A stretch of 40,327 nt of DNA from an uncultured Anaerolineales bacterium (GCA_965370435.1 CBDUUP010000002.1:1-40327), one strand, 5' to 3'. Positions 11,317 through 35,650 are shown, counted from the stretch's first letter. Translations and numbers: made by a program. Notes: a model not told the origin generated them from the sequence alone.

Positions 11317-11317
11317 G

Positions 11318-12171: not shown

Positions 12172-13029
12172 ATGACAACTGACACACCTTTGACCGAACC
12201 CAAGACCGAAATCCAGCCCCTCATCCTGCGGCCCTCGCGAGGTTGGGTCTCTCTGAACCTGCGCGACTTGTGGCTGTACCGCGAGCTGATCTATTTCCTC
12301 ACCTGGCGGGACATCAAGGTGCGCTACAAGCAGACCTTGTTGGGCGCGGCCTGGGCCATCATCCAGCCGCTGCTCAACATGGTGGTGCTGACCGTCATTT
12401 TCGGCAGCCTGGCGGGATTATCATCGGAAGGGTATCCGCGCCCGGTTTTCATCCTGGTGGCGCTGCTGCCCTGGGGATTGTTCTCCAAAGCCTTGAGCGA
12501 TTCGGGGCGTTCGATGCTGGCGAACCGCAACATCATCACCCGCATCTACTTCCCCCGCTTGATTATCCCCCTGGCCTCGGTGTTGGGCGGCGTGGTGGAT
12601 TTTCTCATCGCCTTTGTGGTCTTGCTGCTGATGATGGCCTATTACAAATTGATTCCCACCGTGGCGGTATGGACGCTGCCCCTCTTCGTCCTGCTGGCGG
12701 TCTTCACCGCCCTGGGCGTGGGCCTGTGGCTTTCGGCCCTCAACGTCGCCTACCGGGACGTGGGCTACGTCTTGCCGTTCATGACCCAACTCTGGCTGTT
12801 GATAACCCCGGTGGGCTACTCCTCCACCGAGATCCCGGAGCAGTGGCAGATGCTCTACGCCCTCAACCCTATGGTGGGCGTGGTGGATGGCTTCCGCTGG
12901 GCCTTATTAGGCACCGATACCGGCCCCGGCCCGACCATGCTGGTTTCGGTGACGGTGGCATTGGTATTGCTGGTCAGCGGCTTGATCTATTTCCGGCGCA
13001 TGGAGCGCACTTTTGCGGACACGGTGTAA
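12172..13029 (+). CDS. wzm: ABC-2 type polysaccharide exporter permease (Wzm/TagG-like)
   Basis: 285 aa. LWLYRELIYFLTWRDIKVRYKQTLLGAAWAIIQPL is the canonical ABC-2 N-terminal motif. About 6 TM segments. Confidence 0.9.
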   Translation: MTTDTPLTEPKTEIQPLILRPSRGWVSLNLRDLWLYRELIYFLTWRDIKVRYKQTLLGAAWAIIQPLLNMVVLTVIFGSLAGLSSEGYPRPVFILVALLPWGLFSKALSDSGRSMLANRNIITRIYFPRLIIPLASVLGGVVDFLIAFVVLLLMMAYYKLIPTVAVWTLPLFVLLAVFTALGVGLWLSALNVAYRDVGYVLPFMTQLWLLITPVGYSSTEIPEQWQMLYALNPMVGVVDGFRWALLGTDTGPGPTMLVSVTVALVLLVSGLIYFRRMERTFADTV

Positions 13030-14309
13030 TGACGATGTCTGATATAGCTATTCGAGTTGAGAATTTGGGCAAGCGCTACCGGATCGGGGCCTATCAGGAC
13101 AAATACCGCACGCTGCGCGATTCCCTGGTGGAGGCGGTCACCTGGCCGGTGCGCCGCCTGCGGGGGCAGCTTCCGCCTTCCACCAACATCATCTGGGCCT
13201 TGCGGGAGATCACCTTCGAAGTGCCCCGCGGCCAGGTGTTGGGCGTGATCGGCCGCAACGGGGCGGGCAAAAGCACCCTGCTCAAGGTGCTCTCCAGAGT
13301 CACCGAGCCGACCGAGGGCTATGCCGAGATCTATGGGCGGGTGGGTTCCCTGCTGGAGGTGGGCACCGGCTTCCACCCCGAACTGACCGGGCGGGAGAAC
13401 ATCTACCTCAACGGCGCCATCCTGGGGATGCGGCGGGCTGAGATCAATCGCAAGTTCGATGAGATCGTGGACTTTTCGGGCATCGAGAAGTTCATTGATA
13501 CCCCGGTCAAACGCTATTCGAGCGGGATGTACCTGCGGCTGGCCTTCTCGGTGGCCGCTCATCTGGAGCCAGAGATATTGGTGGTGGATGAGGTCTTGGC
13601 GGTCGGGGACGCCGAGTTCCAGCGCAAGTGCCTGGGCAAGATGAGCGACGTGGCCCAGGCGGGCCGCACGGTGCTGTTCGTCAGCCACAATATGTCGGCG
13701 GTGCTGCGCCTGACCGAGCGGGCCATCGTCCTGGACAAGGGGAGGTTGATCTACGACGCCCCCTCGGGGGAGGCGGTGGACCATTACCTCTCCTCGGGGT
13801 TCTCCCAGGCCGGGGAACGAATCTGGGAAGCGGACGCTATCCCTCCCGGAGCGGCCCCCCTGCGCCCGGTCGCCCTGCGAGTCTGCGACCCAACCGGCCA
13901 GGTGGCCGACACCTTCCGCTCGGTGGAGCCGGTGACAATTGAGATGGAATATCAGTTGGATGAACCCATTCAGGGGCTGCGGGTGGGCTTCTATTTAATG
14001 ACCGCCCGGGGCGAGTTCGTGATGACCTCCTTCGACACCGACGCGCCGGAGCAGTATGAACGTTACGCCGTCCGGGAGGCGGGGCGTTACGTCAGCCGAT
14101 GCACCATCCCGGCGGACTTGCTCAACGAGGGCCGCTACGTGCTGGGTGTCAACGCCAGCGTCTACCGGGTCAAGCGTTATTTCCAGGATGAGAACGCGCT
14201 GGCTTTCACCGTGGACGGCAGCGGCGCGCCGGGCATGCAGTGGCCGGAGCCGCGTCCCGGACCGGTGCGCCCGCGCCTGGATTGGCAGATCGAGGAGGCC
14301 CCCGAATGA
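13029..14309 (+). CDS. wzt: Polysaccharide ABC exporter ATP-binding protein (Wzt/TagH-like) with a ~170-aa C-terminal beta-rich extension (Wzt_C-like)
   Basis: Walker A GRNGAGKST, signature YSSGMYLRL, Walker B ILVVDE. The ATG shares 1 nt with the wzm TAA. The part of ORF 12243-14309 upstream of 13029 is an out-of-context extension. The C-terminal domain call is by length and pattern only. Confidence 0.9.
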   Translation: MTMSDIAIRVENLGKRYRIGAYQDKYRTLRDSLVEAVTWPVRRLRGQLPPSTNIIWALREITFEVPRGQVLGVIGRNGAGKSTLLKVLSRVTEPTEGYAEIYGRVGSLLEVGTGFHPELTGRENIYLNGAILGMRRAEINRKFDEIVDFSGIEKFIDTPVKRYSSGMYLRLAFSVAAHLEPEILVVDEVLAVGDAEFQRKCLGKMSDVAQAGRTVLFVSHNMSAVLRLTERAIVLDKGRLIYDAPSGEAVDHYLSSGFSQAGERIWEADAIPPGAAPLRPVALRVCDPTGQVADTFRSVEPVTIEMEYQLDEPIQGLRVGFYLMTARGEFVMTSFDTDAPEQYERYAVREAGRYVSRCTIPADLLNEGRYVLGVNASVYRVKRYFQDENALAFTVDGSGAPGMQWPEPRPGPVRPRLDWQIEEAPE

Positions 14310-15904
14310 CCCCGGTGAGCAAGGCTGCTCTCAAACAGGCTCTAGGGGAACTCCCACTGACCGCCGAAATGTATTGGGCGCTGCGCCAGGGGCGGCGCGC
14401 CCCCAAAGGCTTCTCGTTGGACCGTTTGCAGGCGGCCTTACCGGAATGGCAGCGGCAGGCGGCGGCTTCGACCTGGAAGGCAGCGGCCCCGCGCAAGGTG
14501 ATGGTCTTCTGCACCCTGCGCTATTGGATCGAGCAGGCCGCGCTGATGGGCGCGGCCCTGGCCGGGCTGGGGCACGAGGTCACCCTGGCGTATCTGCCTT
14601 ACCGCCAATGGCAGCAAGAGGTCAACCGTTTCGACCTGCGCCGCCAGCAGGCTTACCTGCGCAGCGCGCTGAAGGGCAGCGCGCCGCTGATGCAGCCTCT
14701 CTCGCTGCTGGACGTAAAAACGGACGACGCCGAACTACCCGATGAGTTGATGAAGACCCTGCACGAGATTTCGGTGCGCGACGTCCAGTACACTGAGCAA
14801 GTCGAGGACGCCGACCTGGACAGCGATCTCTACCATTTCCGCCTGGCGCGCAACACCCAGGCCGCCCGCGCCGCTTCGACCTGGATGAAGGAAAACCAAC
14901 CGGATGTAGTGATCCTCCCCAACGGCAGCATCCTGGAATTCGGGGCGGTGTACGCGGCCGCTCGAAGCCAGGGCGTGCCGGTGGTGACGTACGAGTTCGG
15001 CGAGCAGCGCGACCGCATCTGGCTGGCGCGGGACGCCGAGATCATGCACCAGGATACCGACTCGCTCTGGGCCGCGCGCCAGGACCGGGAACTGTCCCCC
15101 GATCAATTGGCCCAGGTGCAGGACTTGTTCGCCTCCCGGCAGCGGGCCGACTTGTGGGAGAATTTCTCCCGCCGCTGGCAGGGCGTGGCCGCTCAGGGCG
15201 CGGAGAAAACGCGCGCTGAATTGGGTTTGGACGAACGCCCGGTGGCATTATTGGCCGCCAACGTCATCGGCGACAGCCTGACCCTGGGGCGGCAGGTCTA
15301 TACCGAGACCATGACCGACTGGCTCCAGCGCACGGTGCGATATTTCGCCGGACGCCCGGAGGTGCAGTTGGTGGTGCGGGTTCATCCGGGCGAGCGATAC
15401 CTGACCGGCCCCTCGGTGGAGGCGGTGGTTCAGGAAGCTCTGCCCGAACTACCGGACCACATCCACGTGGTGGCATTTGACGCCCAGATCAATACCTACG
15501 ACCTGGTCGCCTTCGCCGACCTGGGGTTAGTCTACACCACCACCACCGGCATGGAGATGGCGATGAGCGGCCTGCCGGTGATCGTCTCCGGCAAGACCCA
15601 TTACGCCCGCAAGGGCTTCACCCTGGACCCGGACACCTGGGAAGAGTTCACCCAATTGGTGGATCAAGCGCTGGGCGAGACAAACGGCCAGCGGATGTCT
15701 CAAGAGCAGGTGGAGCGGGCCTGGCATTACGCCTACCGGTTCTTCTTCGATTGCCCCCGCCCCTTCCCCTGGCATTTGCTGCACGTCTGGGAGGACCTGG
15801 AGACCTGGCCGCTGGCGCGTTTGTTCAGCGAGGAGGGCCAGGCCCAGTTTGGAGAGACGTTTGCTTACTTGGCCGGTGAGCCGATAGATTGGAATATGAA
15901 CTGA
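14306..15904 (+). CDS. Capsule_synth (KpsC/KpsS)-like putative glycosyltransferase, paralogue 1
   Basis: 532 aa from the ATG that overlaps the wzt TGA (ATGA). VVRVHPGE (HP motif) and TTTTGMEMAMSGLPVIV resemble capsule polysaccharide biosynthesis family motifs. Colinear with 34052-35650. Confidence 0.5.
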   Translation: MTPVSKAALKQALGELPLTAEMYWALRQGRRAPKGFSLDRLQAALPEWQRQAAASTWKAAAPRKVMVFCTLRYWIEQAALMGAALAGLGHEVTLAYLPYRQWQQEVNRFDLRRQQAYLRSALKGSAPLMQPLSLLDVKTDDAELPDELMKTLHEISVRDVQYTEQVEDADLDSDLYHFRLARNTQAARAASTWMKENQPDVVILPNGSILEFGAVYAAARSQGVPVVTYEFGEQRDRIWLARDAEIMHQDTDSLWAARQDRELSPDQLAQVQDLFASRQRADLWENFSRRWQGVAAQGAEKTRAELGLDERPVALLAANVIGDSLTLGRQVYTETMTDWLQRTVRYFAGRPEVQLVVRVHPGERYLTGPSVEAVVQEALPELPDHIHVVAFDAQINTYDLVAFADLGLVYTTTTGMEMAMSGLPVIVSGKTHYARKGFTLDPDTWEEFTQLVDQALGETNGQRMSQEQVERAWHYAYRFFFDCPRPFPWHLLHVWEDLETWPLARLFSEEGQAQFGETFAYLAGEPIDWNMN

Positions 15905-15961: not shown

Positions 15962-16825
15962 ATGACAGAAGACACCGAAGTTAAACAGAACGTGCGCCAA
16001 TTTTACGACCAGGTCGGCTGGCAGGAGGTCGAGGGGGGCGTGTACCAGAACGCCCTCTTTGAAGACCTGCGCCCGGTCTCGCAGGCGTACGTCCATCGCT
16101 GCCACATGCGCATCCCTCGCCACATCCGCCCCCGCGGGCGTTTCCTGCTGGACGCCGGTTCCGGCCCGGTGCAGTACCCGGAATACCAGACCTATTCGCA
16201 GGGATACGATTACCGGGTCTGCGCCGACATTTCAATCGTCGCCTTGCAAGAAGCCCGGCAGCGCATCGGCGATCACGGACTGTTCGTTGTGGCTGATGTC
16301 GCCAACCTGCCTTTCAAGCGGGAGGCCTTCGAGGGCGTGGTTTCCATGCACACCATCCACCACCTGCCTCCCGACGACCACCTCCAGGCCTATGACGGGC
16401 TGTATCGGGTGTTAGCTCCGGGCTGCGCCGCGGCGGTGGTCAACGGCTGGCAGGACGCGCCCCTGATGAAGTTCCTCAAGCCTCTCGTGCGCCTGTCCAA
16501 ACGCGCTCGAAGAGGCCTCAACCGCAGGCTGGGCCAGACCCAAACGCCCAACCCGGATACCCAACCCACGCCCCAGCAAGGCCTCCGCGGCAAGACCTTC
16601 GTGAAGAAGTACGACGCTGCCTGGCTCAAGCGAGAACTGGGATCCCGGATGGCGGTTGAGATTTGGGTCTGGCGGAGCGTGAGCGTGCGCTTCATGCGCA
16701 TCTTCATTCACCGTTGGCTGGGTGGGCGGCTGTTCCTATGGCTGCTCTTCTGGATAGAAGAGCGATTCCCCCATTTCTTCGGCGAGAAGGGGCAGTATCC
16801 GTTGATCGTGATCCGTAAACCTTGA
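15962..16825 (+). CDS. Class I SAM-dependent methyltransferase with a hydrophobic C-terminal tail
   Basis: LLDAGSGPVQ (motif I), VADVANLPF..FEGVVSMHTIHHL, and LYRVLAPGC. C-terminal segment LGGRLFLWLLFWI. Confidence 0.75.
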   Translation: MTEDTEVKQNVRQFYDQVGWQEVEGGVYQNALFEDLRPVSQAYVHRCHMRIPRHIRPRGRFLLDAGSGPVQYPEYQTYSQGYDYRVCADISIVALQEARQRIGDHGLFVVADVANLPFKREAFEGVVSMHTIHHLPPDDHLQAYDGLYRVLAPGCAAAVVNGWQDAPLMKFLKPLVRLSKRARRGLNRRLGQTQTPNPDTQPTPQQGLRGKTFVKKYDAAWLKRELGSRMAVEIWVWRSVSVRFMRIFIHRWLGGRLFLWLLFWIEERFPHFFGEKGQYPLIVIRKP

Positions 16826-16879: not shown

Positions 16880-17887
16880 ATGAACTGGAATGATAAAGTT
16901 GTCCTCGTCACCGGCGGGACCGGTTCGTTCGGCAAGAAGTTTGTGGAGATCATGCTGGACGAATACCGCCCTGAAAAAGTGATCGTCTTCAGCCGGGACG
17001 AACTCAAGCAGCATGAGATGCGCACCGCCGGTTTCGACCAGCCCAACTTGCGTTATTTCATCGGCGACGTGCGCGACCAACAACGTCTGCGCCGGGCCAT
17101 GGATGGAGTGGACGTGGTGGTGCACGCCGCCGCGCTCAAGCAGGTCCCCGCCTGCGAGTACAACCCTATGGAGGCCATCAAGACCAACATCCTGGGAAGC
17201 AGCAACGTGGTGGAAGCCGCGCTGGATGCCGGGGTGAGCAAAGTGTTGGCTTTGAGCACCGATAAGGCGGTCAACCCGGTCAACCTGTATGGGGCTACCA
17301 AGCTGGCCGCCGAGAAGCTGGTGGTGCAGAGCAACGCCTACGCGGGCGGCAAGGTCACCCGCTATAGCTGCGTCCGTTATGGCAATGTGGTCGGCAGCCG
17401 GGGCAGCGTGGTTCCGCTGTTCCTCAAGCAGCGCGAGCAAGGCAAAGTCACCGTCACCGATGAGCGCATGACCCGCTTCTGGGTCTCGTTGGAGCAGGGT
17501 GTGCGTTTTGTGATCCGCTGCATCGAACAGATGCACGGCGGAGAGGTCTTCGTGCCCAAGATCCCCAGTACCACCACCGTGGACTTGGCCAGGGCCATCG
17601 CCCCGGAAGCGGAAATAGACTTCATCGGCATCCGTCCCGGCGAGAAGCTGCACGAGGTGTTGATCTCGGAGGACGAGGCCCGGGGAACCGTGGAACTTGA
17701 CGATATGTTCGTGGTGCAGCCGGTGCAGGCATTATGGTTCGGGTACGAATGGCGGGAGCTTGGCAAACCGCTGCCGGATGGTTTCCGCTACGCCAGCGAT
17801 ACCAATGAGGAACGGCTCAATCTCGACCAGATTCGAGAGATGGTCGCCCCCATCGAAGCGGCCTACAACGACGGGAGCTTAGCTTGA
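16880..17887 (+). CDS. UDP-N-acetylglucosamine 4,6-dehydratase, PseB/FlaA1/CapE-FnlA-like
   Basis: KVVLVTGGTGSFGKKFVE, VFSRDELKQHEM, GDVRD, and YGATKLAAEKL. About 335 aa, typical for this subfamily. Confidence 0.85.
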   Translation: MNWNDKVVLVTGGTGSFGKKFVEIMLDEYRPEKVIVFSRDELKQHEMRTAGFDQPNLRYFIGDVRDQQRLRRAMDGVDVVVHAAALKQVPACEYNPMEAIKTNILGSSNVVEAALDAGVSKVLALSTDKAVNPVNLYGATKLAAEKLVVQSNAYAGGKVTRYSCVRYGNVVGSRGSVVPLFLKQREQGKVTVTDERMTRFWVSLEQGVRFVIRCIEQMHGGEVFVPKIPSTTTVDLARAIAPEAEIDFIGIRPGEKLHEVLISEDEARGTVELDDMFVVQPVQALWFGYEWRELGKPLPDGFRYASDTNEERLNLDQIREMVAPIEAAYNDGSLA

Positions 17888-18804
17888 TGCGTTTATTGGT
17901 CACCGGCAGCAGCGGTTTATTGGGGTCTAACCTCTCCCTGGAGGCGGTGAAGCAGGGCCACGAGGTCTACGGCGTGGACCGCAATCCGTTGAACACCGAG
18001 ATTTTCAACCAACACCGTGCAGACCTTTTGGATCCAGGCGCGGTGGCGGAGGCCTTCGCCCAGATCAAGCCGGACTGGGTCGTTCACTGCGCCGCTCTCG
18101 CCAATCTGGAAGCCTGTGAAGCCGACCCCGACCTGGCCCATCAGATGAACGCGGACATGGCCGGGACTGTGGCGGCGGAGGCGGCCAAAGCTGGGGCGCG
18201 GATGGTGCATATTTCCACCGATGCAGTCTTTGATGGGATACGCGGCGGCTACGTTGAGACCGACGCACCCAACCCCCTCGGCGTTTACGCCCGGACCAAA
18301 TTGGCCGGGGAACATGCCGTGGCGGCTGCCCATCCAGAAGCCATCATCGCCCGGGTGAACTTCTACGGCTGGAGTCCAACCGGGGACCGCAGCCTGGCCG
18401 AGTTCTTCTTCAATAACATCTCGGCCGGGAAGAAAGTGAACGGCTTCACCGATCGTTACTTTTGCCCTATGCTGGTCAACGACCTGGTCCAAATCCTGAT
18501 GCAGATGTTGGAAGCCGGATTGCAAGGAATTTATCACACAGTCAGCGCTGAGCCGTTGAGCAAATATGCTTTCGGCCTCGTCATCGCCCGGCGGTTCGGG
18601 CTGGATGAGACCTTGATTCAGCCAATTGAATACACGCCCAGCGACCAGAACGCGGCCCGCTCCCCCAACCTGACCATGAACACCGGCAAGCTGGTCGGAG
18701 CTTTGGGCGAAGCCCCGCCCACCGTCATCTCAGGCATCCAACGCCTGTATGACTTATATAAGGAAGACTACCCGCAGAAACTGCGAGCGATGCTTAAAAA
18801 CTGA
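17887..18804 (+). CDS. RmlD-like (dTDP-4-dehydrorhamnose reductase family) NAD(P)H sugar 4-ketoreductase
   Basis: MRLLVTGSSGLLGSNL, HCAALANLEACE, and YARTKLAGE. The ATG overlaps the upstream TGA; the track start TTG 17884 is an alternative. Confidence 0.75.
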   Translation: MRLLVTGSSGLLGSNLSLEAVKQGHEVYGVDRNPLNTEIFNQHRADLLDPGAVAEAFAQIKPDWVVHCAALANLEACEADPDLAHQMNADMAGTVAAEAAKAGARMVHISTDAVFDGIRGGYVETDAPNPLGVYARTKLAGEHAVAAAHPEAIIARVNFYGWSPTGDRSLAEFFFNNISAGKKVNGFTDRYFCPMLVNDLVQILMQMLEAGLQGIYHTVSAEPLSKYAFGLVIARRFGLDETLIQPIEYTPSDQNAARSPNLTMNTGKLVGALGEAPPTVISGIQRLYDLYKEDYPQKLRAMLKN

Positions 18805-18807
18805 TCC

Positions 18808-18824
18808 ACCACAGAGACACAGAG
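18808..18824. repeat. Solo arm of the CACAGAGA hairpin element
   Basis: ACCACAGAGACACAGAG is identical to 9306-9322. No complementary arm lies nearby. Located 4 nt after the stop at 18804. Confidence 0.7.
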
Positions 18825-18846
18825 AACAACAAACTTAATTTACTAT

Positions 18847-18895
18847 CCACTGACCACTACCCACTGACAACTGCCTACTGCCTACTGACAACTGG
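18847..18895. repeat. Seven in-phase heptamers (CCACTGA-type tandem array)
   Basis: CCACTGA CCACTAC CCACTGA CAACTGC CTACTGC CTACTGA CAACTGG. The array ends in the GGAG RBS of the 18903 gene. Confidence 0.75.
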
Positions 18896-18902
18896 AGCGC
18901 CT

Positions 18903-19970
18903 ATGGAAATAAAAATTGGAGACCGCCTCATCGGCCTTGACCACCCCACCTACTTCATCGCCGACGTAGCTGCCAACCACGACGGCGATCTGGAGCGCGC
19001 CAAGATGCTGATCCGTCTGGCGGCGGAAGCTGGGTCCGATGCGGCCAAATTTCAGAACTTCCGCGGCCCCCAGATCGTCTCCGATTACGGATTCAGAGCC
19101 TTAGGCGGGCAGCTCTCCCACCAGGCGAGTTGGAAGAAGAGCGTGGTGGAGGTTTATGATGACGCCTCCATCCCTTTCGAGTGGACCCAGCATCTGGCCG
19201 AGGAGTGCAGCCAGGCGGGTCTGGATTATATTTCGTCTCCCTACGACGACGAAGCCATTGAAATGCTGGATCCCTACCTCCCGGCTTATAAGGCTGGTTC
19301 GGGGCTGATGTCCTGGCCGAGCGGCATAGTCCGCATGGCCGAGAAGGGCAAGCCCATCCTGATCGCCACCGGGGCGGCGGACCTCAGCGACGTGGTGCGG
19401 GCGGTGCGGATGGTGCGGGAGGTCAACGACCAGATCGTGCTGATGCAGTGCAACACCAATTACACTGCCAGCGACGAAAATTACGACCACCTGCACCTCA
19501 ATGTGCTCAAGACCTACGCCTCCCTTTTCCCCGACGTGGTTCTGGGCCTTTCCGACCACACCCACAGCGTCGCGCCGGTGTTGGGCGCAGTGACGCTGGG
19601 CGCAAGAGTGATCGAGCGCCACTTCACCGACGACAACGACCGCGAAGGGCCGGATCATAAATTTGCCCTGAACCCCGAAACCTGGGCCAACATGGTCGCA
19701 GAAACCCGCATCCTGGAACGCGCCTTAGGCTCGGCGGACAAGTTCGTGGCCGGGAACGAGAAAGACACTTATGTCGTGCAGCGACGCTGCCTGCGAGCGG
19801 CGCGGGACATCCAGGCCGGTGAAACCCTCACCCCGGAGATGGTGGAGGCCCTGCGCCCCGCCACGCCCGGCGCCATCCCGCCCTACGAGATCGAAAACGT
19901 GATCGGAACCCGCGCCCTGACCGACCTCCCTTTCGGCAAAGACCTGCGCTGGACGGATTTGGGCGTTTAA
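18903..19970 (+). CDS. NeuB-family nonulosonic/sialic acid synthase-like protein (SpsE/PseI/LegI-like) with a SAF domain
   Basis: HPTYFIADVAANHDGDLERAKMLIRLAAEAGSDAAKFQNF, VIERHFT..D..GPDH, and a C-terminal SAF-like segment (RAARDIQAGETLT). Confidence 0.8.
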   Translation: MEIKIGDRLIGLDHPTYFIADVAANHDGDLERAKMLIRLAAEAGSDAAKFQNFRGPQIVSDYGFRALGGQLSHQASWKKSVVEVYDDASIPFEWTQHLAEECSQAGLDYISSPYDDEAIEMLDPYLPAYKAGSGLMSWPSGIVRMAEKGKPILIATGAADLSDVVRAVRMVREVNDQIVLMQCNTNYTASDENYDHLHLNVLKTYASLFPDVVLGLSDHTHSVAPVLGAVTLGARVIERHFTDDNDREGPDHKFALNPETWANMVAETRILERALGSADKFVAGNEKDTYVVQRRCLRAARDIQAGETLTPEMVEALRPATPGAIPPYEIENVIGTRALTDLPFGKDLRWTDLGV

Positions 19971-19997
19971 CGTTCTAACGTTTAAACGTTTAACGAT
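19969..19997. repeat. Short tandem of ~8-nt units carrying the AACGTT palindrome
   Basis: AACGTT at 19969, 19977 and 19985, and AACGAT at 19992. This fills the whole 28-nt gap between the neuB-like and GT4 genes. Confidence 0.6.
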
Positions 19998-19998
19998 T

Positions 19999-21105
19999 AT
20001 GAGAGTACTGTACTTTACCAGAGACTACACTCCCCATGACCATCGCTTCTTGAGCGCGCTGGCGGGGACCGAGCATGAGGTGGTTTATCTGCGGCTGGAA
20101 CGGCGCGGGCGTCAATTGGAAGACCGCGCTTTGCCGCCGGAGGTCCAACAGGTATCCTGGGCGGGCGGGAAGTCCCCGGCGCGGCTGAGGGGCGGCCCCC
20201 GGCTGCTGCGCGGCCTCAAGCGAGTGATCGCTCAAGTCAAGCCCGACTTGATCCACGCCGGGCCGTTGCAGACGGTGGGCCTGCTGGCGGCGCTCTCCGG
20301 CTTCCATCCGCTGGTAACTATGCCCTGGGGTTCCGACCTGATGCTGGATGCGGATAAGGACGCCCGTTATCGCTGGGCGACGCGTTACGTCCTTCGGCGC
20401 AGCGACGTGATGGTAGGCGACTGCGAGGCCGTGCGCCAGAAGGCCATCGCCTTCGGCATGGAGGCTGACAGGATCGTCACCTTCCCCTGGGGCGTGGACT
20501 TGGCCCAATTCTCCCCCGGCGAGGACGGCGGCTTGCGCGCTCGCAAGGGCTGGGAAGAGAACTTCGTTCTGCTCTCCACTCGCTCCTGGGAGCCGGTCTA
20601 CGGCGTGGACGCGCTGGCCCGGGCCTTCGTCCTGGCCGCCCAACAGCGGCCCGAACTGCGCCTTTTCATGCTGGGAGGCGGTTCGCAGGCCGGATTGCTC
20701 CGCCAGATAGTCTCGCGGGGCGGCGTGCAGGACAAAGTGTACTTCCCCGGCCGGATCGGGCAGGATGACCTGCCCCGCTACTACCGGGCCGCCGACTTGT
20801 ACCTCAGCGCCTCCCACAGCGATGGCTCTTCGGTCTCGCTGATGGAGTCCCTGGCGTGCGGCTGCCCTGCGCTGGTCTCCGACATCCCCGGCAACCGCGA
20901 ATGGGTGACCCCCGGCCAGCAGGGCTGGCAGTTCCCCGACGGCGACCCGCAGGCCCTGGCGAAAGCTATCCTGCGTGCCGTGGAAGAACGCGGCCGCCTC
21001 CCGGAGATGGCCCAAGCCGCCCGCTCCCTGGCCGAAGACCGCGCCGACTGGAACAAGAACTTCAAGGAATTGTTGAGAGCTTATGAGATTGCTACGTCAG
21101 ATTAA
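19999..21105 (+). CDS. Glycosyltransferase family 4 (GT-B, GT1-superfamily)
   Basis: MRVLYFTRDYTPHDHRF N-terminus. The C-terminal domain has SHSDGSSVSLMESLACGCPALVSDIPGNREWV (EX7E-type motif). Confidence 0.85.
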   Translation: MRVLYFTRDYTPHDHRFLSALAGTEHEVVYLRLERRGRQLEDRALPPEVQQVSWAGGKSPARLRGGPRLLRGLKRVIAQVKPDLIHAGPLQTVGLLAALSGFHPLVTMPWGSDLMLDADKDARYRWATRYVLRRSDVMVGDCEAVRQKAIAFGMEADRIVTFPWGVDLAQFSPGEDGGLRARKGWEENFVLLSTRSWEPVYGVDALARAFVLAAQQRPELRLFMLGGGSQAGLLRQIVSRGGVQDKVYFPGRIGQDDLPRYYRAADLYLSASHSDGSSVSLMESLACGCPALVSDIPGNREWVTPGQQGWQFPDGDPQALAKAILRAVEERGRLPEMAQAARSLAEDRADWNKNFKELLRAYEIATSD

Positions 21106-21168
21106 CCACGAAGACACGAAGTCACTAAGAAAAAACAAAAAAACTTTGTGTCTTGGTGTCTTTGTGGT
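21105..21168. repeat. Hairpin repeat element, CACGAAGA/CACAAAGA subtype (~25-bp imperfect stem, A-rich loop)
   Basis: ACCACGAAGACACGAAGTCACTAAG, then AAAAAACAAAAAAA, then CTTTGTGTCTTGGTGTCTTTGTGGT. By hand alignment it is ~88% identical to the reverse complement of 31151-31210. It starts on the last base of the TAA stop. Confidence 0.8.
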
Positions 21169-21185: not shown

Positions 21186-21950
21186 ATGACCAAACCAAGA
21201 ACCCTCGCCATCATCCAGGCCCGCATGGCCTCCCAACGCTTGCCCGGCAAAGTGTTAGCCGACATCGCCGGGCAGCCGATGCTGGCCTGGGTGGTGGAGC
21301 GCAGCCGCTTGGCCGAGACCCTGGATGGGGTGGCAGTGGCGACCACGGTTGACCCCTCCGATGACCCGGTGGCAGCGCTGTGCGAAGCCCGCGGCTGGGC
21401 CTACACTCGCGGCAGCATGCAAGACGTACTGGACCGCTACTACCAGGCCGCCAAACAGCATCAGGCTGAGGTCATCGTCCGCATCACCGCCGACTGCCCG
21501 TTGATGGACCCCGGATTGATTGACCACATGGTCAACATCTTTCTCTCCGCCGATCCGCCGCTGGACTTCGCCGCCAACCGCCTTCCGGAGGGGCGCACCT
21601 ATCCTATTGGCCTGGATATCGAGGTCTGCACTTTCGCGGCGCTGGAGACCGCCTGGCAGGAAGCGACCGCTCCCCACCAGCGCGAACACGTGATGCCTTT
21701 CCTCTACGAGAACCGGGAGCGCTTCAACGTGCTGCTGGTCCATCACCCGGAGGACTACGGCGCGCTGCGTTGGACGGTGGACACGCCCCAGGACCTGGAA
21801 GCGGTGCGCCAAATATTCGCCCACCTGGAAGGGCGGGAGGCGTTCACCTGGCTGGAAGCGCTGGAGGTCTACCGGCAAAACCCGTCCCTGGCCGAGATCA
21901 ACGCCTCGGTGAAACACAAATTTTATAGCGAAACAGAAGATATTAAGTAA
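21186..21950 (+). CDS. Cytidylyltransferase, SpsF/CTP_transf_3 family (CMP-sugar synthase-like)
   Basis: LAIIQARMASQRLPGKVLADIAGQPML is the canonical SpsF-type N-terminus. 254 aa. Confidence 0.8.
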   Translation: MTKPRTLAIIQARMASQRLPGKVLADIAGQPMLAWVVERSRLAETLDGVAVATTVDPSDDPVAALCEARGWAYTRGSMQDVLDRYYQAAKQHQAEVIVRITADCPLMDPGLIDHMVNIFLSADPPLDFAANRLPEGRTYPIGLDIEVCTFAALETAWQEATAPHQREHVMPFLYENRERFNVLLVHHPEDYGALRWTVDTPQDLEAVRQIFAHLEGREAFTWLEALEVYRQNPSLAEINASVKHKFYSETEDIK

Positions 21951-31150: not shown

Positions 31151-31210
31151 ACCACAAAGACTCTAAGACACAAAGTTTTGTTTTTCTTCGTGTCTTTGTG
31201 TCTTCGTGGT
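31151..31210. repeat. Hairpin repeat element, inverted copy of the 21105-21168 element
   Basis: ACCACAAAGACTCTAAGACACAAAG, then TTTTGTTTTT, then CTTCGTGTCTTTGTGTCTTCGTGGT. A 25-bp stem with 4 mismatches, located 10 nt after the stop at 31141. Confidence 0.8.
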
Positions 31211-31223
31211 AAAAAAAAATACA

Positions 31224-31979
31224 ATGACTGAAGTCCTCGCCTTGATCCCCGCCCGGGGCGGCTCCAAGAGCATCCCCCGGAAGAATATCCACCCCTTTGG
31301 AGAGCATCCGTTGATCGCCTACAGCATCGCGGCTGGTCTGGCCGCCGAGACGGTGAGCCGGGTGGTGGTCTCCACCGATGATGAGGAGATCGCCAAGGTG
31401 TCCCGGCGCTATGGGGCCGAAACGCCCTTCCTGCGCCCGGACGAACACGCCCAGGATGACACCCCCGACCTGCCCGTCTTCCAGCACGCGCTAGAATGGC
31501 TGGCCGAGAACGAAGGCTACCAGCCGGACATCGTGGTGCAGCTTCGCCCGACCTCTCCCTTCCGGCGGGTCTGGCACATAGACCAGGCCGTCCAACGCCT
31601 TATCGAACAGCCGGAGGCCGACGCGGTGCGCACGGTCTGCATCCCTTTCCAGAATCCTTTCAAGATGTGGACTCTCGCGCCCGATGGGTTGATGCAGCCC
31701 TTGATACAGACCGAGTTCGACGAACCCTACAACATGCCCCGCCAGACCCTGCCCGAAGTGTACTGGCAGACCGGCTACGTGGACGCGACCTGGGCAAATA
31801 CCATTCTAGAGAAAAATTCCATGACCGGCGAGCGCATCCTGCCGCTGGTCATTGACCCCGGCGACTGGGTGGACATCGATTCCCCCGACGATTGGCGATG
31901 GGCGGAACGGCTGTTGGCCGGAGGCGAGATCACCCTGGATGACCTGGGCTTCCAGGTCACGGAGGTTTCAGATGCCTGA
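31224..31979 (+). CDS. Acylneuraminate cytidylyltransferase family (NeuA/LegF-like CMP-nonulosonate synthase)
   Basis: ALIPARGGSKSIPRKNI canonical N-terminus. ATG 31224 is preferred over the track's GTG 31206. Confidence 0.8.
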   Translation: MTEVLALIPARGGSKSIPRKNIHPFGEHPLIAYSIAAGLAAETVSRVVVSTDDEEIAKVSRRYGAETPFLRPDEHAQDDTPDLPVFQHALEWLAENEGYQPDIVVQLRPTSPFRRVWHIDQAVQRLIEQPEADAVRTVCIPFQNPFKMWTLAPDGLMQPLIQTEFDEPYNMPRQTLPEVYWQTGYVDATWANTILEKNSMTGERILPLVIDPGDWVDIDSPDDWRWAERLLAGGEITLDDLGFQVTEVSDA

Positions 31980-33864
31980 GATCAAGATAGGCGACCGCCT
32001 GATAGGCGACGGCCATCCAACTTACATAATCGCCGAGATCGGCGTGAACCACAACGGCATTCTGCCGTTAGCCATCGAGTTGATTGACGCCGCGGTGGAC
32101 GCCGGCGCCGACGCGGTCAAATTCCAGAAGCGAAACCTGGAAAACCTGTATCCCCGGAAATACCTGGAAAATGTCAACGCCGGAGAGAAGACCCTGCGCT
32201 ACATGCTGCCTATCTTGCAAAAAGTGGAGCTTTCCGACGAGGATTACTGGCGCATCAAAGAACACTGCCAGAAGAAAGACATCACCTTCCTGTGCACACC
32301 CTGGGACAACGACAGCGCCGACTTCCTGCTCGAGTTGGGCATCCCGGCTTTCAAGGTCGCCTCCCCCGATATGATCAACCTGCCGTTGATCGAACACCTG
32401 GTGAAATTTAACAAACCCTTGATCCTCTCCACCGGCATGTCGCGGATGGAGGAGGTGGAAACCACGGTGGAATTCCTCCAGGAGCGGGGGGCCGAGTTCG
32501 CCCTGCTGCACTGCAACAGCGCCTACCCCGCCGCTTTCGAGGACATCAACCTGCGCTTCATGGAGCGCCTGCGTGAGTTCGGCGTCCCGGTGGGCTATTC
32601 CGGCCACGAGCGGGGCATCGCCGTCTCTACGGTGGCGGCCGCCATGGGCGCAACAATTGTCGAACGCCACATCACCCTGGACCGGACTATGGACGGCCCC
32701 GACCACGCCTCCAGCCTGGAGCCGGGTGGTTTCAAAAAGATGATCCGTGACATCCGGCAGACCGCCGCCGCGATGGGCGCTGGGAAGGAAAAATTCATCA
32801 GCATGGGGGAGATCCTCAACCGCGAGGTGTTGGCCAAGAGTCTGGTAGCCGCCCGAAATATTGAATCGGGAGAGAAGATCACATCCGAGATGGTGACGGT
32901 GAAAGGGCCAGGACAGGGCCTCTCCCCGCAGCATTACCTGGAACTGGTGGGCCGCACTACGGAACGCGCCATCGAAGAGGACGAACCTTTCCTGGAAGCC
33001 GACCTGGGGATTGAACTGGACCTGGACGTTGAGCACACCCTGCCCATGCAATGGGGCGTTACGGTGCGCTTCAATGACTTCAAAGATATGCTTGACCTCG
33101 ACCTGCGCATGCTGGAGTTCCACTTCACCGATAAAGACCTGGACGATCCCTATCCCGGCGGCGACTACTCCATGAAGATGGTCGTCCATGCCCCCGAATA
33201 CTGGGACAATACCCTGGTGGACCTCTGCACCACCGATGATATTCAGCGCCGCGACTCCATCGCCCTGGTGCAGAAAGCGATCAACGTGGCCCGCAGCATC
33301 GCCCCCCACTTTGAGGGCGCTCCCAAGGTCGTCATCCATCCCGGGGCCATGAGCATCGACCATCCCATCGAAGACCGCCAGACCCTGTATGACAATCTGC
33401 GGCGTTCGGTTGAGGCTTTGGATCACGAGGGTGTAGAACTGCTGCTGGAGAACCTGCCCCCCCGGCCCTGGTATTTTGGCGGCCAATGGCTGACCAACGC
33501 CTTCATGGACGCCCACGAGATCGTGGAATTCATCGAATCCACGAGCCTCACCGGGTTCTGTTTCGACACCTCCCATTCCAAACTGTACTGCAACTGGGCG
33601 CAGGTGGATTTCTACGAGCAGGTGGAAGTCGCGCTGCCCTACATCCGCCACCTGCACCTCTCCGACGCCGCCGGATTGGACGGCGAAGGGTTGCAGATCG
33701 AGGAAGGGGTGATTGATTGGGTGAAATTCTTCAAAGTATTGGGCGACTATAAGGACACCATGATCCCGGAGATATGGCGCGGCCACCAACGCCACGGCGA
33801 GGGCTTCCGCATCGCCATCCGCCGCCTCTCGGAGGCCTATTTCAAAGCTCAGGAGGGCGGATAG
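31972..33864 (+). CDS. Fusion protein: NeuB-like synthase + SAF domain (N-terminal) fused to a xylose-isomerase-like TIM-barrel domain (C-terminal)
   Basis: 630 aa from ATG 31972, with an 8-nt overlap with the upstream gene. The N-terminal half has HPTYIIAEIGVNHNG, FKVASPD, ERHITLD..GPDH and SAF (ARNIESGEKIT). From about 33040 onward the motifs VVHAPEYW, VVIHPGAM, LLLENL, FCFDTSH and HLHLSDA are typical of AP_endonuc_2/sugar-phosphate isomerase barrels. Confidence 0.8.
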   Translation: MPEIKIGDRLIGDGHPTYIIAEIGVNHNGILPLAIELIDAAVDAGADAVKFQKRNLENLYPRKYLENVNAGEKTLRYMLPILQKVELSDEDYWRIKEHCQKKDITFLCTPWDNDSADFLLELGIPAFKVASPDMINLPLIEHLVKFNKPLILSTGMSRMEEVETTVEFLQERGAEFALLHCNSAYPAAFEDINLRFMERLREFGVPVGYSGHERGIAVSTVAAAMGATIVERHITLDRTMDGPDHASSLEPGGFKKMIRDIRQTAAAMGAGKEKFISMGEILNREVLAKSLVAARNIESGEKITSEMVTVKGPGQGLSPQHYLELVGRTTERAIEEDEPFLEADLGIELDLDVEHTLPMQWGVTVRFNDFKDMLDLDLRMLEFHFTDKDLDDPYPGGDYSMKMVVHAPEYWDNTLVDLCTTDDIQRRDSIALVQKAINVARSIAPHFEGAPKVVIHPGAMSIDHPIEDRQTLYDNLRRSVEALDHEGVELLLENLPPRPWYFGGQWLTNAFMDAHEIVEFIESTSLTGFCFDTSHSKLYCNWAQVDFYEQVEVALPYIRHLHLSDAAGLDGEGLQIEEGVIDWVKFFKVLGDYKDTMIPEIWRGHQRHGEGFRIAIRRLSEAYFKAQEGG

Positions 33865-34051: not shown

Positions 34052-35650
34052 TTGATCTCCCGTCTCCGCACCGCCTGGATCGGATGGCGCAGCGCCCGCC
34101 GTCTGATGAGTATGGCCCGCCAGGTGGCGGCCCAGGCGACTCCCTCCGATGGGAAGCGCCCGGTGGCGTTCTTCAACGCCTCGGCTCGTATCACCGGACT
34201 CAGCCTCAACGCGGCTTTTTCGCTGCTGGCCGCCTGGAGTCTGCGATTGGCGGGCGTTCCGGTGGCGCATTTCGTCTGCCGGTCGGGGATGAGCCGCTGC
34301 GTTCTGGGGTCCAACCGGGACGACCACACCGCCCCCCCGCCCTGTGAATCCTGCATCGAGACCTCCCGCCGCCTGTATCACCAGGCCAACCCGCACTGGT
34401 TTTCCTACGTACCCGATGACACCTTGACCAGGACGATCCAGCGGCTCAGCGTGGACCAATTGATGGATTTCGTGTATCAGAGCCGTCCGCTGGGCGCGCT
34501 GGCGCTGCCCTCCCTGCGCTGGACCTTGCGACGCCACACCCTGCTGGACGACGTTCCTACCCGCCACCTGTTGAGGGAATACATCCTCTCCGCCAACCGG
34601 GTGATGGATGAGTTCGACGCTTTCCTGGCGCAGGTCAACCCCTCCGCGGCGGTGATCTTCAACGGGACCATGTTCCCGGAGGCGGCCGCGCGTTGGGTGG
34701 CCCAGCGCCGCGGCGTGCGGGTGATAACCCACGAAGTCGCCTTCGAGCCGTTTTCGGCCTTTTTCACCGGCGGGGAGGCGACCGCCTATCCGGTGGACAT
34801 CCCCGAGGATTTTGAGCTTTCCCCGGCCCAGGACGAACGCCTGAACGTACACTTGGCCCAGCGTTTCCAGGGCGAGTTCACCATGGCGGGGATACGGTTC
34901 TGGCCCCAGATGCAGGGCCTGGACGAGGACTTCCTTGCTCGCGCCGCCCAATTCAAGCAGATCGTCCCCATCTTCACCAACGTGGTCTTCGATACCAGCC
35001 AGGTGCACGCCAACACCGTCTTCCCCCACATGTTCGCCTGGTTGGACACCGCGTTAGAGATCATTCACGCCCACCCGGAGACGCTTTTCGTCATCCGCGC
35101 CCACCCGGACGAGATGCGCCCCGGCACCGGCAAGCAGAGCCGGGAGAGCGTCCGCCAATGGGTGGAGGGCCAGGGCGTCAGCGATCTTCCCAACGTGGCC
35201 TTTATCGATTCGGAGGAGTACGTCAGTTCCTATGAATTGATCCAGCAGGCCAAGTTCGTCATCGTCTATAACTCCTCCATCGGCCTGGAGGCGACCTTGC
35301 TGGGGAGGCCGGTATTGTGCGGCGGCCAGGCCCGCTACACCCAGTATCCCACCGTCTTCTTCCCCCAGACCCCCGATTCATACCGCCAGCAAGCAGAGGA
35401 GTTCCTGACCGCCGAAGCCATCCCCCTGCCGGAGGAGTTCGTCCGCAACGCCCGGCGTTTCTTGTATTTCCAGCTTTTCCGCACCTCCCTGCCCCTGGGA
35501 GAGTTTGTAGAGAACCATCCCCGGCCTGGTTTCATCCAGTTGCGTCCCTTTGATCTGGCGCAGCTTCGGCCAGAACACTCTATGTCGTTGAAGGTCATCC
35601 AGGAGGGGATTTTGGAGGGCGGCCCTTTCCTGGCGAACGAGGACTCATGA
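34052..35650 (+). CDS. Capsule_synth (KpsC/KpsS)-like putative glycosyltransferase, paralogue 2, with a Cys4 cluster
   Basis: FVIRAHPDE (HP motif) and VYNSSIGLEATLLGRPVL. N-terminal C-x6-C-x14-C-x2-C (HFVCRSGMSRC...CESC). TTG start 34052 has a GGAGG 6 nt upstream; ATG 34106 is an alternative. Confidence 0.5.
   Translation: MISRLRTAWIGWRSARRLMSMARQVAAQATPSDGKRPVAFFNASARITGLSLNAAFSLLAAWSLRLAGVPVAHFVCRSGMSRCVLGSNRDDHTAPPPCESCIETSRRLYHQANPHWFSYVPDDTLTRTIQRLSVDQLMDFVYQSRPLGALALPSLRWTLRRHTLLDDVPTRHLLREYILSANRVMDEFDAFLAQVNPSAAVIFNGTMFPEAAARWVAQRRGVRVITHEVAFEPFSAFFTGGEATAYPVDIPEDFELSPAQDERLNVHLAQRFQGEFTMAGIRFWPQMQGLDEDFLARAAQFKQIVPIFTNVVFDTSQVHANTVFPHMFAWLDTALEIIHAHPETLFVIRAHPDEMRPGTGKQSRESVRQWVEGQGVSDLPNVAFIDSEEYVSSYELIQQAKFVIVYNSSIGLEATLLGRPVLCGGQARYTQYPTVFFPQTPDSYRQQAEEFLTAEAIPLPEEFVRNARRFLYFQLFRTSLPLGEFVENHPRPGFIQLRPFDLAQLRPEHSMSLKVIQEGILEGGPFLANEDS

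Follow-up and report, generated by a model that had tools for sequence, protein, structure and literature searches.

The locus and the overlap of CS1 with wzt

The window, that is, the whole stretch of DNA analysed here (40,327 nucleotides from an uncultured Anaerolineales bacterium; GCA_965370435.1, CBDUUP010000002.1:1-40327), holds a cluster in which wzm and wzt, the genes of an ABC exporter, are followed directly by a gene that we refer to as CS1 (Table 1). As a sequence-only reading of this DNA had described, CS1 is a stop-free open reading frame of 532 amino acids that begins in an ATGA overlap with wzt, its ATG (14306–14308) sharing bases with the wzt TGA (14307–14309), and both of the motifs quoted in that reading lie in the translated protein (VRVHPGE at residues 356–363 and VYTTTTGMEMAMSGLPVIV at residues 409–427). 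In addition, a GAGGAGG Shine-Dalgarno sequence (14292–14298) is placed 7 nt 5′ of the CS1 start, within the 3′ end of wzt, and wzt and CS1 overlap in a similar manner, by ATGA, TAATG or TGATG, in 13 or more of 21 related loci from Chloroflexota. CS1 is a real gene and not a chance reading frame: full-length homologues at about 60% identity number in the thousands, and of 121 genomes sampled from its order 76 carry it, a count that also applies to the whole module of wzm, wzt, CS1 and a methyltransferase gene.

Table 1. Features of the locus, with positions counted from the first nucleotide of the window.
Feature	Position	Strand	Basis
Wzm, ABC-2 exporter permease	12172..13029	+	ABC2_membrane, E 9.6e-21
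Wzt, ABC exporter ATPase, 426 aa, with C-terminal Wzt_C carbohydrate-binding-type domain	13029..14309	+	ABC_tran; Wzt_C
wzt/CS1 coupling site, GAGGAGG ribosome-binding site and ATGA overlap	14292..14309	+
CS1, predicted KpsC-fold (Capsule_synth-like) transferase, 532 aa	14306..15904	+	ORF translation, profile, predicted fold
MT1, SAM methyltransferase, proposed partner of CS1	15962..16825	+	Methyltransf_11
PseB, inverting UDP-GlcNAc 4,6-dehydratase, step 1 of a Pse-type pathway	16880..17887	+	TIGR03589
RmlD-like 4-reductase	17884..18804	+	RmlD_sub_bind; 187 bits, under the rmlD cut-off of 224
NeuB1, divergent nonulosonic acid synthase	18903..19970	+	NeuB and SAF domains
GT4-type GT-B protein of the conserved core, backbone glycosyltransferase or possible PseG-like hydrolase	19999..21105	+
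CMP-sugar synthase 1	21186..21950	+	CTP_transf_3
CMP-sugar synthase 2, PseF-like	31206..31979	+	TIGR03584, 157.6 bits, under the cut-off of 205.7
NeuB2 fused to an AP_endonuc_2 TIM barrel	31852..33864	+
CS2, 532-aa paralogue of CS1 with a Cys4 motif in its N-domain	34052..35650	+
MT3, methyltransferase directly after CS2	35647..36555	+

The Wzt_C domain of Wzt, at 41.8 bits, exceeds its cut-off of 30.4, and in related loci Wzt is conserved at full length with 67–74% identity. The best solved relative of MT1 is a D-glucose O-methyltransferase (E 2.4e-5). PseB passes its equivalog model clearly (488.9 bits, cut-off 407.75); NeuB1 scores under both the NeuB and the PseI equivalog cut-offs, and the top scores of CMP-synthase 1 are to KdsB subfamily models, all of them under cut-off. 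NeuB2 probably starts at some point after 31852. Also part of the conserved core are GMD/Fcl-like genes for sugar nucleotides and distinct transferases of the GT4 and GT2 types. The sequence-only reading had counted two NeuB-like and two CMP-sugar synthase genes in the cluster, as well as a distant paralogue of CS1, and all of these are present, both CMP-sugar synthases being CTP_transf_3 proteins. The paralogue, CS2, matches CS1 by BLASTP (E 4e-16, 23% identity over 301 amino acids) and in a profile–profile comparison (probability 99%, E 3.5e-18, over CS1 residues 186–488), and each of the two adjoins its own NeuB and CTP_transf_3 set. The methyltransferases next to them, MT1 and MT3, have no similarity by BLASTP.

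CS1 and CS2 share a predicted fold with KpsC

Members of the KpsC/KpsS/WbbB/KpsS1 superfamily are retaining ulosonic-acid glycosyltransferases with a modified GT-B fold, and both profile and structural comparisons place CS1 and CS2 near them. Both proteins pass the gathering cut-off of 20 bits for PF05159 (Capsule_synth), CS1 with 22.6 and CS2 with 34.5 bits, with matches limited to profile positions 145–276 of 310, in the C-terminal half; they are the only PF05159 genes in the whole genome, which is 90% complete. The AlphaFold model of CS1 (pLDDT 86, pTM 0.85) is GT-B-like, and among 48,161 chains its best matches are the N-module of KpsC (Z 15.4, rmsd 4.2 Å, 284 of 321 residues) and the KpsC C-module (Z 14.6, rmsd 4.3 Å); WbbB follows with Z 12.1, and other GT-B chains superpose at 7–12 Å. 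Likewise, the N- and C-modules of KpsC are the top matches of the CS2 model (Z 16.4 and 14.4, rmsd 3.8 Å), the next match having Z 13.0 at an rmsd of 10 Å and WbbB reaching Z 11.4. In terms of sequence, CS1 and CS2 are only marginally similar to solved KpsC, with phmmer E-values of 0.28 and 0.005, respectively, and family-profile E-values of 0.032 and 0.008 over 45–55 residues only.

The earlier suggestion of a KpsC/KpsS-type protein thus stands at the level of the superfamily, where the PF05159 match, the fold and the aligned motifs agree, but not as strict membership of GT107 or GT99, which is unsupported: sequence resemblance to KpsC is no more than marginal, and QxxxD is replaced by NxxxD. 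Judged by its predicted fold, CS1 belongs to this superfamily as a soluble and highly divergent protein. KpsC itself (GT107, the dual β-Kdo transferase of group 2 capsules; PDB 6mgb, 6mgd, 6mgc and 8fuw) resembles CS1 in having genes associated with an ABC exporter, and it uses a CMP-activated 2-keto-3-deoxy acid as donor, as CS1 probably would. It differs in that CS1 is a single module with extra helical elements (residues 1–60, about 240–310 and about 445–532), that CS1 has a probable nonulosonic acid donor in place of Kdo, and that CS1 lies beside a Wzm/Wzt exporter with a carbohydrate-binding module (CBM), in a Chloroflexota host, where KpsC is paired with KpsMT.

The GT-B fold is shared with other enzymes of nonulosonic acid pathways, and in an alternative reading CS1 would be no transferase but a missing nucleotide-sugar hydrolase or 2-epimerase of the PseG or NeuC type. 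The Foldseek top 50 for CS1 comprises generic GT-B enzymes and epimerases, UDP-GlcNAc 2-epimerases among them and KpsC not, and CS2 has a weak match to Epimerase_2 (E 0.029). Furthermore, PseG was not found in the genome. Nonetheless, the rmsd to KpsC is far lower than that to the epimerases, the KpsC catalytic motifs are conserved, one operon holds both a CS homologue and a genuine Epimerase_2 gene, and the GT4-type gene between NeuB1 and the CMP-synthase could itself be the hydrolase. We consider a hydrolase or epimerase role very unlikely.

Catalytic motifs and a proposed mechanism

The motifs of CS1 comprise N319-x-x-x-D323-S, with D323 as the candidate nucleophile; R358-x-H360-P361-x-E363; T411-T-T-x-G415-x-E417; and E230 of a T-Y-E sequence as the candidate base. 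CS2 has the same catalytic set (E228; N310-x-x-x-D314; R349-x-H351-P352-x-E354; S408-S-x-G411-x-E413). In a HMMER alignment, Q-T-F-N-D of KpsC pairs with N-V-V-F-D of CS2, the aligned KpsC aspartate being the residue that is Asn in the variant chain 8fuw, and the HP and S-x-x-G-x-E motifs of KpsC fall on their CS2 counterparts. These residues are invariant within the CS1 and CS2 families. Across 84 diverse representatives, at most 50% identical to one another, the motif residues are kept in 77–83: in the nucleophile motif, D323 in 81 and N319 in 77, so that the Gln of QxxxD has become Asn, and in the CMP-binding-domain motifs H360 and P361 in 83, E363 in 81, G415 in 80 and E417 in 82. The E230 position is Glu in 68 and Asp in 10 of the 84, and T-Y-E230 is invariant within CS1's own family. 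D323 adjoins the sole low-confidence loop of the CS1 model (residues 324–331).

By homology with KpsC, WbbB and KrkA, the C-terminal Rossmann domain would bind the CMP-sugar through R358-x-H360-P361-x-E363 and T411-T-T-x-G415-x-E417; D323 would attack C2 of the sugar, giving a covalent sugar–enzyme adduct, and the acceptor hydroxyl would then displace the aspartate, so that the anomeric configuration would be retained. E230 may activate the acceptor hydroxyl. A general base in a Y-E motif has also been proposed for KpsS1 (GT118), the Acinetobacter baumannii transferase for Pse5Ac7Ac, to which CS1 can be likened by description: KpsS1 is of Capsule_synth type and transfers a nonulosonic acid from a CMP donor with retention, as CS1 would. 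KpsS1, however, acts in the making of a Wzx/Wzy capsule repeat unit, whereas CS1 lies beside Wzt.

The probable donor is a nonulosonic acid

The sequence-only reading had left open an eight- or a nine-carbon CMP-ulosonic acid as the donor. From the context of the synthases, a pathway survey of the genome and the neighbourhoods of homologues, we infer that a nonulosonic acid, with nine carbons and activated by CMP, is the most likely donor in place of Kdo. The NeuB family is known for nine-carbon acids, and the donor of CS1 would be made by the genes 3′ of it: PseB, the RmlD-like reductase, NeuB1 and the CMP-synthase. By analogy, NeuB2 and CMP-synthase 2 would supply CS2 with the second nonulosonic acid for transfer. 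What tells against a firm assignment of the sugar is that NeuB1 falls short of both equivalog cut-offs and that the conserved core lacks an aminotransferase and PseG. Some distant CS homologues have legionaminic- or pseudaminic-type surroundings, with examples in a Kiloniellaceae genome and within a Leg-type operon that is complete, and KpsS1 is a Pse transferase within the same superfamily. There is also a faint likeness to the BFO_1060 family (NCBIfam NF046086), which includes Tanf_01245 and TFUB4_00887, the genetically proven Pse/Leg transferases of Tannerella forsythia. These terminal nonulosonic acid transferases have an HP motif, and their genes adjoin the CMP-NulO locus, in one strain with only a methyltransferase gene between; they act on a protein-linked O-glycan, whereas we propose an ABC-exported polymer for CS1, and the scores of CS1 and CS2 are far under the family cut-off of 200 bits (33.2 and 37.8) over some 80–90 residues round the HP motif only.

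That CS1 is instead a literal β-Kdo transferase of GT107 or GT99 type, using CMP-Kdo as in Klebsiella O12, appears extremely improbable. The Capsule_synth match, the KpsC/WbbB-like fold and the KdsB-leaning, though sub-threshold, scores of CMP-synthase 1 would fit such an enzyme, but the adjoining synthases are of the NeuB family, and the genome, 90% complete, yielded neither WaaA nor a KdsA equivalog (the only related hit has 126 bits against a cut-off of 314, which the Bacillus and Thermotoga controls did not reach either).

A conserved exporter–transferase–methyltransferase module

The gene order HTH–epimerase–wzm–wzt–CS1–MT1–PseB–reductase–NeuB is kept in about 20 Chloroflexota loci. Wherever the sequence reaches 5′ of CS1, which it does in 21 related loci, the gene directly before it encodes a full-length Wzt, and MT1 comes next after CS1 in 19 of the 22 loci with downstream sequence. 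CS1 and MT1 are also found fused in frame, in P0242 and in G303 (L036:6260-8770), two fusion lineages only 46% identical to each other. In a distant lineage the order is Wzm–Wzt(Wzt_C)–MT–CS, adjoining NeuB and CTP_transf_3; another contig has two tandem pairs of ABC ATPase and CS genes followed by a methyltransferase; and two more have a fused ABC half-transporter, lacking the C-terminal CBM, directly 5′ of the CS homologue. Since these half-transporters have no CBM, and since some CS homologues (that of the Leg-type operon, for example) lie in operons with no exporter nearby, not every CS homologue is coupled to an exporter, nor does each locus have a cap reader.

The position of CS1 is that of a terminator gene in the published arrangement of cap-dependent systems, in which wzm and wzt are followed by the terminator and a CBM is attached to Wzt only where a cap is read. 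We propose that CS1 would work as a unit with MT1 and the translationally coupled Wzm/Wzt exporter: it would add a nonulosonic acid, methylated by MT1, to the non-reducing end of a finished cytoplasmic glycan, and this methylated cap would stop elongation and provide the epitope read by the C-terminal domain of Wzt. On comparative genomics a chain-terminator role is plausible, favoured by the conserved Wzt(CBM)–transferase–methyltransferase module and the natural fusions of transferase to methyltransferase. Taken as one reading, a KpsC-superfamily enzyme with a CMP-nonulosonate donor that builds an MT1-methylated export cap is one to which we give slightly better than even chances.

Several known systems come close to this proposal. 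In Klebsiella O12 and Raoultella terrigena (WbbB, GT99, with Wzt-CBM), and with the GT137 Kdo terminator of Klebsiella O4, an ulosonic cap from a CMP donor is the ligand of the Wzt C-domain; the terminator gene lies beside wzm–wzt, and the WbbB fold is related to that of CS1 and CS2. Those caps are Kdo, whereas the proposed CS1 cap is a nine-carbon, probably methylated acid, and WbbB forms one protein with a coiled-coil ruler and polymerase modules, whereas CS1 stands alone. The WbdD-type terminators of E. coli O8/O9a and Klebsiella O7, which are methyltransferases or kinase-methyltransferases, are encoded directly after wzm–wzt, as CS1 is; methylation is part of their cap, and their methyltransferase can be fused to another cap activity, as in the CS1–MT1 fusions. 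They differ in that the methyl or methyl-phosphate goes onto a backbone sugar, no ulosonic acid being added, and in that they have a coiled-coil ruler. Such a ruler is characteristic of known terminators, so its absence from the CS1 model, in which the longest helix has 24 residues (174–197), counts against a terminator role.

The absence of a ruler would equally suit an in-chain role, in which CS1 transfers nonulosonic acid within a repeat unit, as a side branch or as a polymerase, and MT1 modifies each residue. The evidence of family, fold and donor is the same for this as for the cap; KpsC, which polymerises Kdo, and KrkA are polymerising members of the superfamily; a dedicated pathway of at least five genes is a heavy cost for one residue per chain; and homologues exist away from any exporter. 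The polylegionaminic acid of Legionella, reportedly exported by Wzm/Wzt, would be a model for the polymerising variant. Against this, the GMD/Fcl-like genes and the GT4 and GT2 transferases of the core could build a backbone, and the strict adjacency and translational coupling to a Wzt of the cap-reading type, together with the methyltransferase fusions, fit a terminal modification better. An in-chain role therefore seems to us unlikely, if worth serious attention.

Less probable still is a KpsS-like primer, which would begin the chain by attaching an ulosonic acid to a membrane lipid, for instance phosphatidylglycerol; the chain would grow on this conserved reducing-end glycolipid, and the ABC exporter would recognise it, as in capsules of the KpsMT/KpsS/KpsC type. 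KpsC is the closest solved fold, the Pfam family is that of KpsS and KpsC, ABC exporter genes recur beside homologues, including the half-transporters with no CBM, and the 40-kb window showed no initiating transferase of the polyprenyl-phosphate type. However, Wzt_C here is of the type that reads non-reducing-end caps, the methyltransferase fusion has no counterpart in KpsS/KpsC systems, CS1 barely registers against the KpsS equivalog model (E 0.26), and no membrane-binding segment is evident in the CS1 model.

Implications

Returning to the methylated cap, a more specific version of the proposal can be put forward tentatively, at somewhat less than even chances: that CS1 with MT1 is a ruler-less terminator of a new kind, that an O-methylated nonulosonic cap is the ligand of the Wzt C-domain, that exporter ATPase, KpsC-fold NulO transferase and methyltransferase form a mobile unit in several phyla, sometimes as tandem Wzt–transferase pairs, each exporter reading its own cap, or as fused enzymes, and that the CS family with its NxxxD motif is a new glycosyltransferase family.

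To our knowledge, the caps described so far are methyl, methyl-phosphate and Kdo. If the proposal is true, a sialic-acid-like sugar would be a new type of cap, and the "cap, then export" quality control of ABC-dependent glycans would reach beyond Gram-negative O antigens to the Chloroflexota. It would also define a glycosyltransferase family that is uncharacterised and very large, a profile search having returned 5,890 clusters at 50% identity, and that probably serves nonulosonic acids, for which transferases are notoriously scarce; enzymes of the CS family would be useful tools for putting Pse- or Leg-like sugars on glycans. For the Anaerolineales, an abundant and poorly cultured lineage, the candidate catalytic aspartate, the fusion proteins and the paired Wzt domain would offer a testable handle on a surface polymer.

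Gene content of the cluster

The window is an entire contig of a 4.4 Mb genome that is 90% complete, and it holds a single glycan cluster with every gene on the forward strand. As the sequence-only reading had described it, the CS1 open reading frame, immediately downstream of the ABC-exporter genes wzm and wzt, encodes 532 residues; its ATG is joined to the wzt stop in an ATGA overlap (14306-14309), and both segments quoted from it, VRVHPGE and TTTTGMEMAMSGLPVIV, are present in the translation. A GAGGAGG ribosome-binding site lies inside wzt, 7 nt upstream of the CS1 ATG.

Genes of the cluster, in window order (grouped where no individual position is given)
Feature	Position	Strand	Remark
GMD, AMP-binding enzyme		+	first group
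Unknown 905-aa protein	4967-7684	+	first group
HTH regulator, two epimerases		+	first group; one epimerase Fcl-like
Two sulfotransferases		+
Wzm	12172-13029	+	ABC exporter
Wzt	13029-14309	+	with Wzt_C; C-terminal domain at about residues 255-426
CS1	14306-15904	+	KpsC-fold protein
MT1	15962-16825	+	methyltransferase
PseB	16880-17887	+	equivalog, above cut-off
RmlD-like reductase	17884-18804	+
NeuB1	18903-19970	+
GT4 protein	19999-21105	+
CMP-synthase 1	21186-21950	+
MT2		+
Unknown 297-aa protein	22849-23742	+
GT2 protein		+
More sulfotransferases, TauE, PAPS synthase		+
SDR		+
CMP-synthase 2	31206-31979	+
NeuB2	31852-33864	+	TIM-barrel fusion
CS2	34052-35650	+	paralogue of CS1
MT3	35647-36555	+	methyltransferase
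Synthetase-like ligase, GNAT, AAC(3)-type acyltransferase, DUF4910		+	last group

A sulfated polymer of 6-deoxyhexose (fucose-type) is a possible backbone; GMD and the Fcl-like GDP-fucose synthase stand alongside 4-5 sulfotransferases, TauE and PAPS synthase (2260-3243, 9441-10397, 10435-12169, 24457-30300). Neither the 297-aa nor the 905-aa protein has a Pfam or NCBIfam match. The former belongs to the core of almost every related locus, invariably between the CMP-synthase and GT2 genes; the latter is present in just one.

The proposal that CS2 is a distant paralogue of CS1 holds, with 23% identity over 301 residues (BLASTP E 4e-16) and a profile-profile match over residues 186-488 (probability 99%, E 3.5e-18), the N-terminal ~185 residues being unlike. 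Because the adjoining methyltransferases, MT1 and MT3, have no similarity detectable by BLASTP, a simple two-gene duplication of the transferase-methyltransferase pairs is ruled out. The N-terminal domain of the CS2 family carries four invariant cysteines within residues 76-101 (C76, C83, C98 and C101; C-x6-C ... C-x2-C), a set absent from CS1, which suggest a structural zinc site. Many distant members of the CS family likewise have at least four cysteines within their first 130 residues.

Fold and catalytic motifs

The family assignment, made by eye in the sequence-only reading, can be judged at several levels. Both proteins pass the Pfam Capsule_synth (PF05159) cut-off of 20, CS1 with 22.6 bits and CS2 with 34.5 bits, in a match limited to profile positions 145-276. 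Among NCBIfam models they match the BFO_1060 family weakly, far below its cut-off; this family includes the Tannerella forsythia transferases for pseudaminic/legionaminic acid, whose function has been proven genetically (PMC5420450). By sequence, solved structures are matched only marginally, KpsC being the sole relevant match: the CS1 and CS2 family profiles, searched against PDB sequences, reach KpsC over 45-55 residues only and do not reach WbbB, KrkA or KpsS1. The CS family itself is large (5,890 clusters at 50% identity with E <= 1e-3, and 828 with E <= 1e-30).

AlphaFold models built from the family alignments are confident (CS1, pLDDT 86 and pTM 0.85; CS2, pLDDT 85 and pTM 0.87). The top 50 Foldseek matches in the PDB contain generic GT-B enzymes and UDP-GlcNAc 2-epimerases and lack KpsC, whose likeness to the models is seen only by exhaustive structural alignment against 48,161 chains. 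In that comparison both KpsC modules rank first for both models, with Z scores of 15.4 and 14.6 for CS1 (rmsd 4.2-4.3 Å; 284 of the 321 residues of the N-module aligned) and 16.4 and 14.4 for CS2 (rmsd 3.8 Å). WbbB gives Z scores of 12.1 and 11.4, and every other GT-B match has an rmsd of 7-12 Å.

When CS2 and KpsC are aligned with HMMER, N-V-V-F-D of CS2 falls on Q-T-F-N-D of KpsC, A-H-P-D-E on its HP motif and S-S-I-G-L-E on its S-x-x-G-x-E. The KpsC aspartate aligned with that of the first CS2 motif, which is asparagine in the variant chain 8fuw, is the nucleophile in the double-displacement mechanism of WbbB, KpsC and KrkA (PMC12887879). Invariant in the CS1 family are N319, D323, R358, H360, P361, E363, T411-T413, G415 and E417. 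Across 84 representatives with no more than 50% identity to one another, these motif residues are retained in 77-83. A T-Y-E230 motif in the N-domain is likewise conserved, with E or D in 78 of the 84, and is reminiscent of the Y-E motif put forward as general base in KpsS1 and KrkA (PMC12887879). The KpsC-like fold of the model and these conserved motifs place CS1 in the superfamily of retaining ulosonic-acid transferases. The Capsule_synth/KpsC-type assignment stands on the Pfam cut-off, the fold and the motifs, but does not extend to strict GT107 membership: the resemblance in sequence is too slight, and NxxxD stands in place of QxxxD.

Donor sugar

Capsule_synth genes number only two in the whole genome, CS1 and CS2, as do NeuB genes, both of which lie in the window; a separate set of NeuB and CMP-synthase genes flanks each transferase gene. 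The genome, at 90% completeness, yielded no WaaA and no KdsA equivalog, the sole related gene scoring 126 bits against a KdsA cut-off of 314, below which control genes from Bacillus and Thermotoga likewise fall. Furthermore, distant CS homologues (26-36% identity) sit within nonulosonic acid gene sets: one in a Kiloniellaceae locus that carries two NeuB genes, two CMP-synthase genes and a PseB-like gene, and another inside a complete legionaminic-type operon (aminotransferase, CBS-nucleotidyltransferase, dehydratase, hydrolysing 2-epimerase, NeuB, HisF/HisH-like pair, CMP-synthase and acetyltransferase). There is also a precedent in KpsS1 (GT118), a retaining pseudaminyltransferase of the KpsC-type superfamily (PMC12887879). 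Taken together, these observations lead us to read the probable donor of CS1 as a CMP-nonulosonic acid, and make Kdo unlikely.

The core of the cluster (16880-21950) contains no aminotransferase and no PseG, and the only strong DegT gene in the genome is on a different contig; NeuB1 scores below both the NeuB and the PseI cut-offs. In this core PseB is followed directly by the RmlD-like 4-reductase, and then by NeuB and the CMP-synthase. The GT4 protein is a candidate for the hydrolase step. Such a pathway would be compatible with a 7-hydroxy, 9-deoxy acid; tentatively, its product would be a 5-acetamido-7-hydroxy-9-deoxy nonulosonic acid and not a 5,7-diamino sugar.

A conserved exporter-transferase-methyltransferase module

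In the 24 Chloroflexota loci found with CS1, gene order is kept: HTH, epimerase, wzm, wzt, CS1, MT1, PseB, reductase, NeuB1, GT4, CMP-synthase, the 297-aa protein and GT2. All 21 loci that have upstream sequence carry a full-length Wzt directly upstream of CS1, and in at least 13 of these the wzt stop overlaps the CS1 start. A structure prediction of the Wzt-CS1 complex scored 0.00 and is uninformative either way. CS1 was found in 76 of 121 genomes sampled from its own order, where by family it is all-or-none, but in just 12 of 201 sampled from the class, and a class-wide distribution in Anaerolineae is accordingly rejected. Two metagenome-assembled genomes built from long reads have an orthologue broken by stop codons or changes of frame (L023:10001-11531, first stop after 177 codons; L024:10001-11577, after 83), which may reflect assembly indels or pseudogenes.

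CS1 and MT1 are naturally fused in frame in two proteins: P0242 (893 aa) and the product of an 836-aa open reading frame (L036:6260-8770) in a species-representative genome (G303:C33). The two are only 46% identical and represent two lineages; the methyltransferase portion of the latter is 55% identical to MT1. Such fusions indicate that a CS1-type transferase and an MT1-type methyltransferase act as a functional unit. Beyond the Chloroflexota lineage of the module, a Wzm-Wzt(Wzt_C)-methyltransferase-CS arrangement adjoins NeuB and CMP-synthase genes. On the contig of the homologue P0280 (JGI 3300047160) two tandem ATPase-CS pairs occur in the order Wzm, ABC ATPase (446 aa), CS-like (537 aa), ABC ATPase (425 aa), CS-like (547 aa), Methyltransf_21, the start of the 547-aa gene overlapping the preceding ATPase stop, as though a separate cap-making enzyme served each ATPase. 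Fused ABC half-transporters are likewise found directly upstream of distant CS homologues, one of which is then followed by a methyltransferase.

Other distant homologues (P0310, P0320, P0369, P0381, P0363 and P0375) are fused at either terminus to TPR repeats and lie in unrelated, uninformative metabolic contexts; compared by description only, this architecture resembles that of FlmG, a TPR plus GT-B flagellin pseudaminyl/legionaminyl transferase. P0263, a further distant homologue, had no match when used as a query of genome contigs.

A candidate cap-making function

In cap-dependent systems the terminator gene is commonly 3′ of wzm-wzt, often with a methyltransferase. In these systems a Wzt with a carbohydrate-binding module (CBM) exports terminated chains only, and known terminators bear a coiled-coil ruler (PMC11231755), whereas the AlphaFold model of CS1 has none. 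A CBM-bearing exporter partner is also missing beside some CS homologues. CS1 might instead act in-chain or as a polymerase, which we regard as less likely. That CS1 is a KpsS-like enzyme priming a lipid seems more improbable still.

Retaining Kdo and Pse transferases of the KpsC-type fold (GT99, GT107, GT118, GT140) are already known, as are cap-reading Wzt exporters. The literature searched yielded no description of a nonulosonic acid as cap, of a ruler-less transferase-methyltransferase terminator, or of the wzm-wzt-CS1-MT1 module in Chloroflexota. The conserved Wzt-CS1-MT1 module, the fusions, the recurrence of the arrangement elsewhere and the published cap-dependent systems provide circumstantial evidence that favours the terminator role suggested by the sequence-only reading, with CS1 and MT1 together making the terminal cap.
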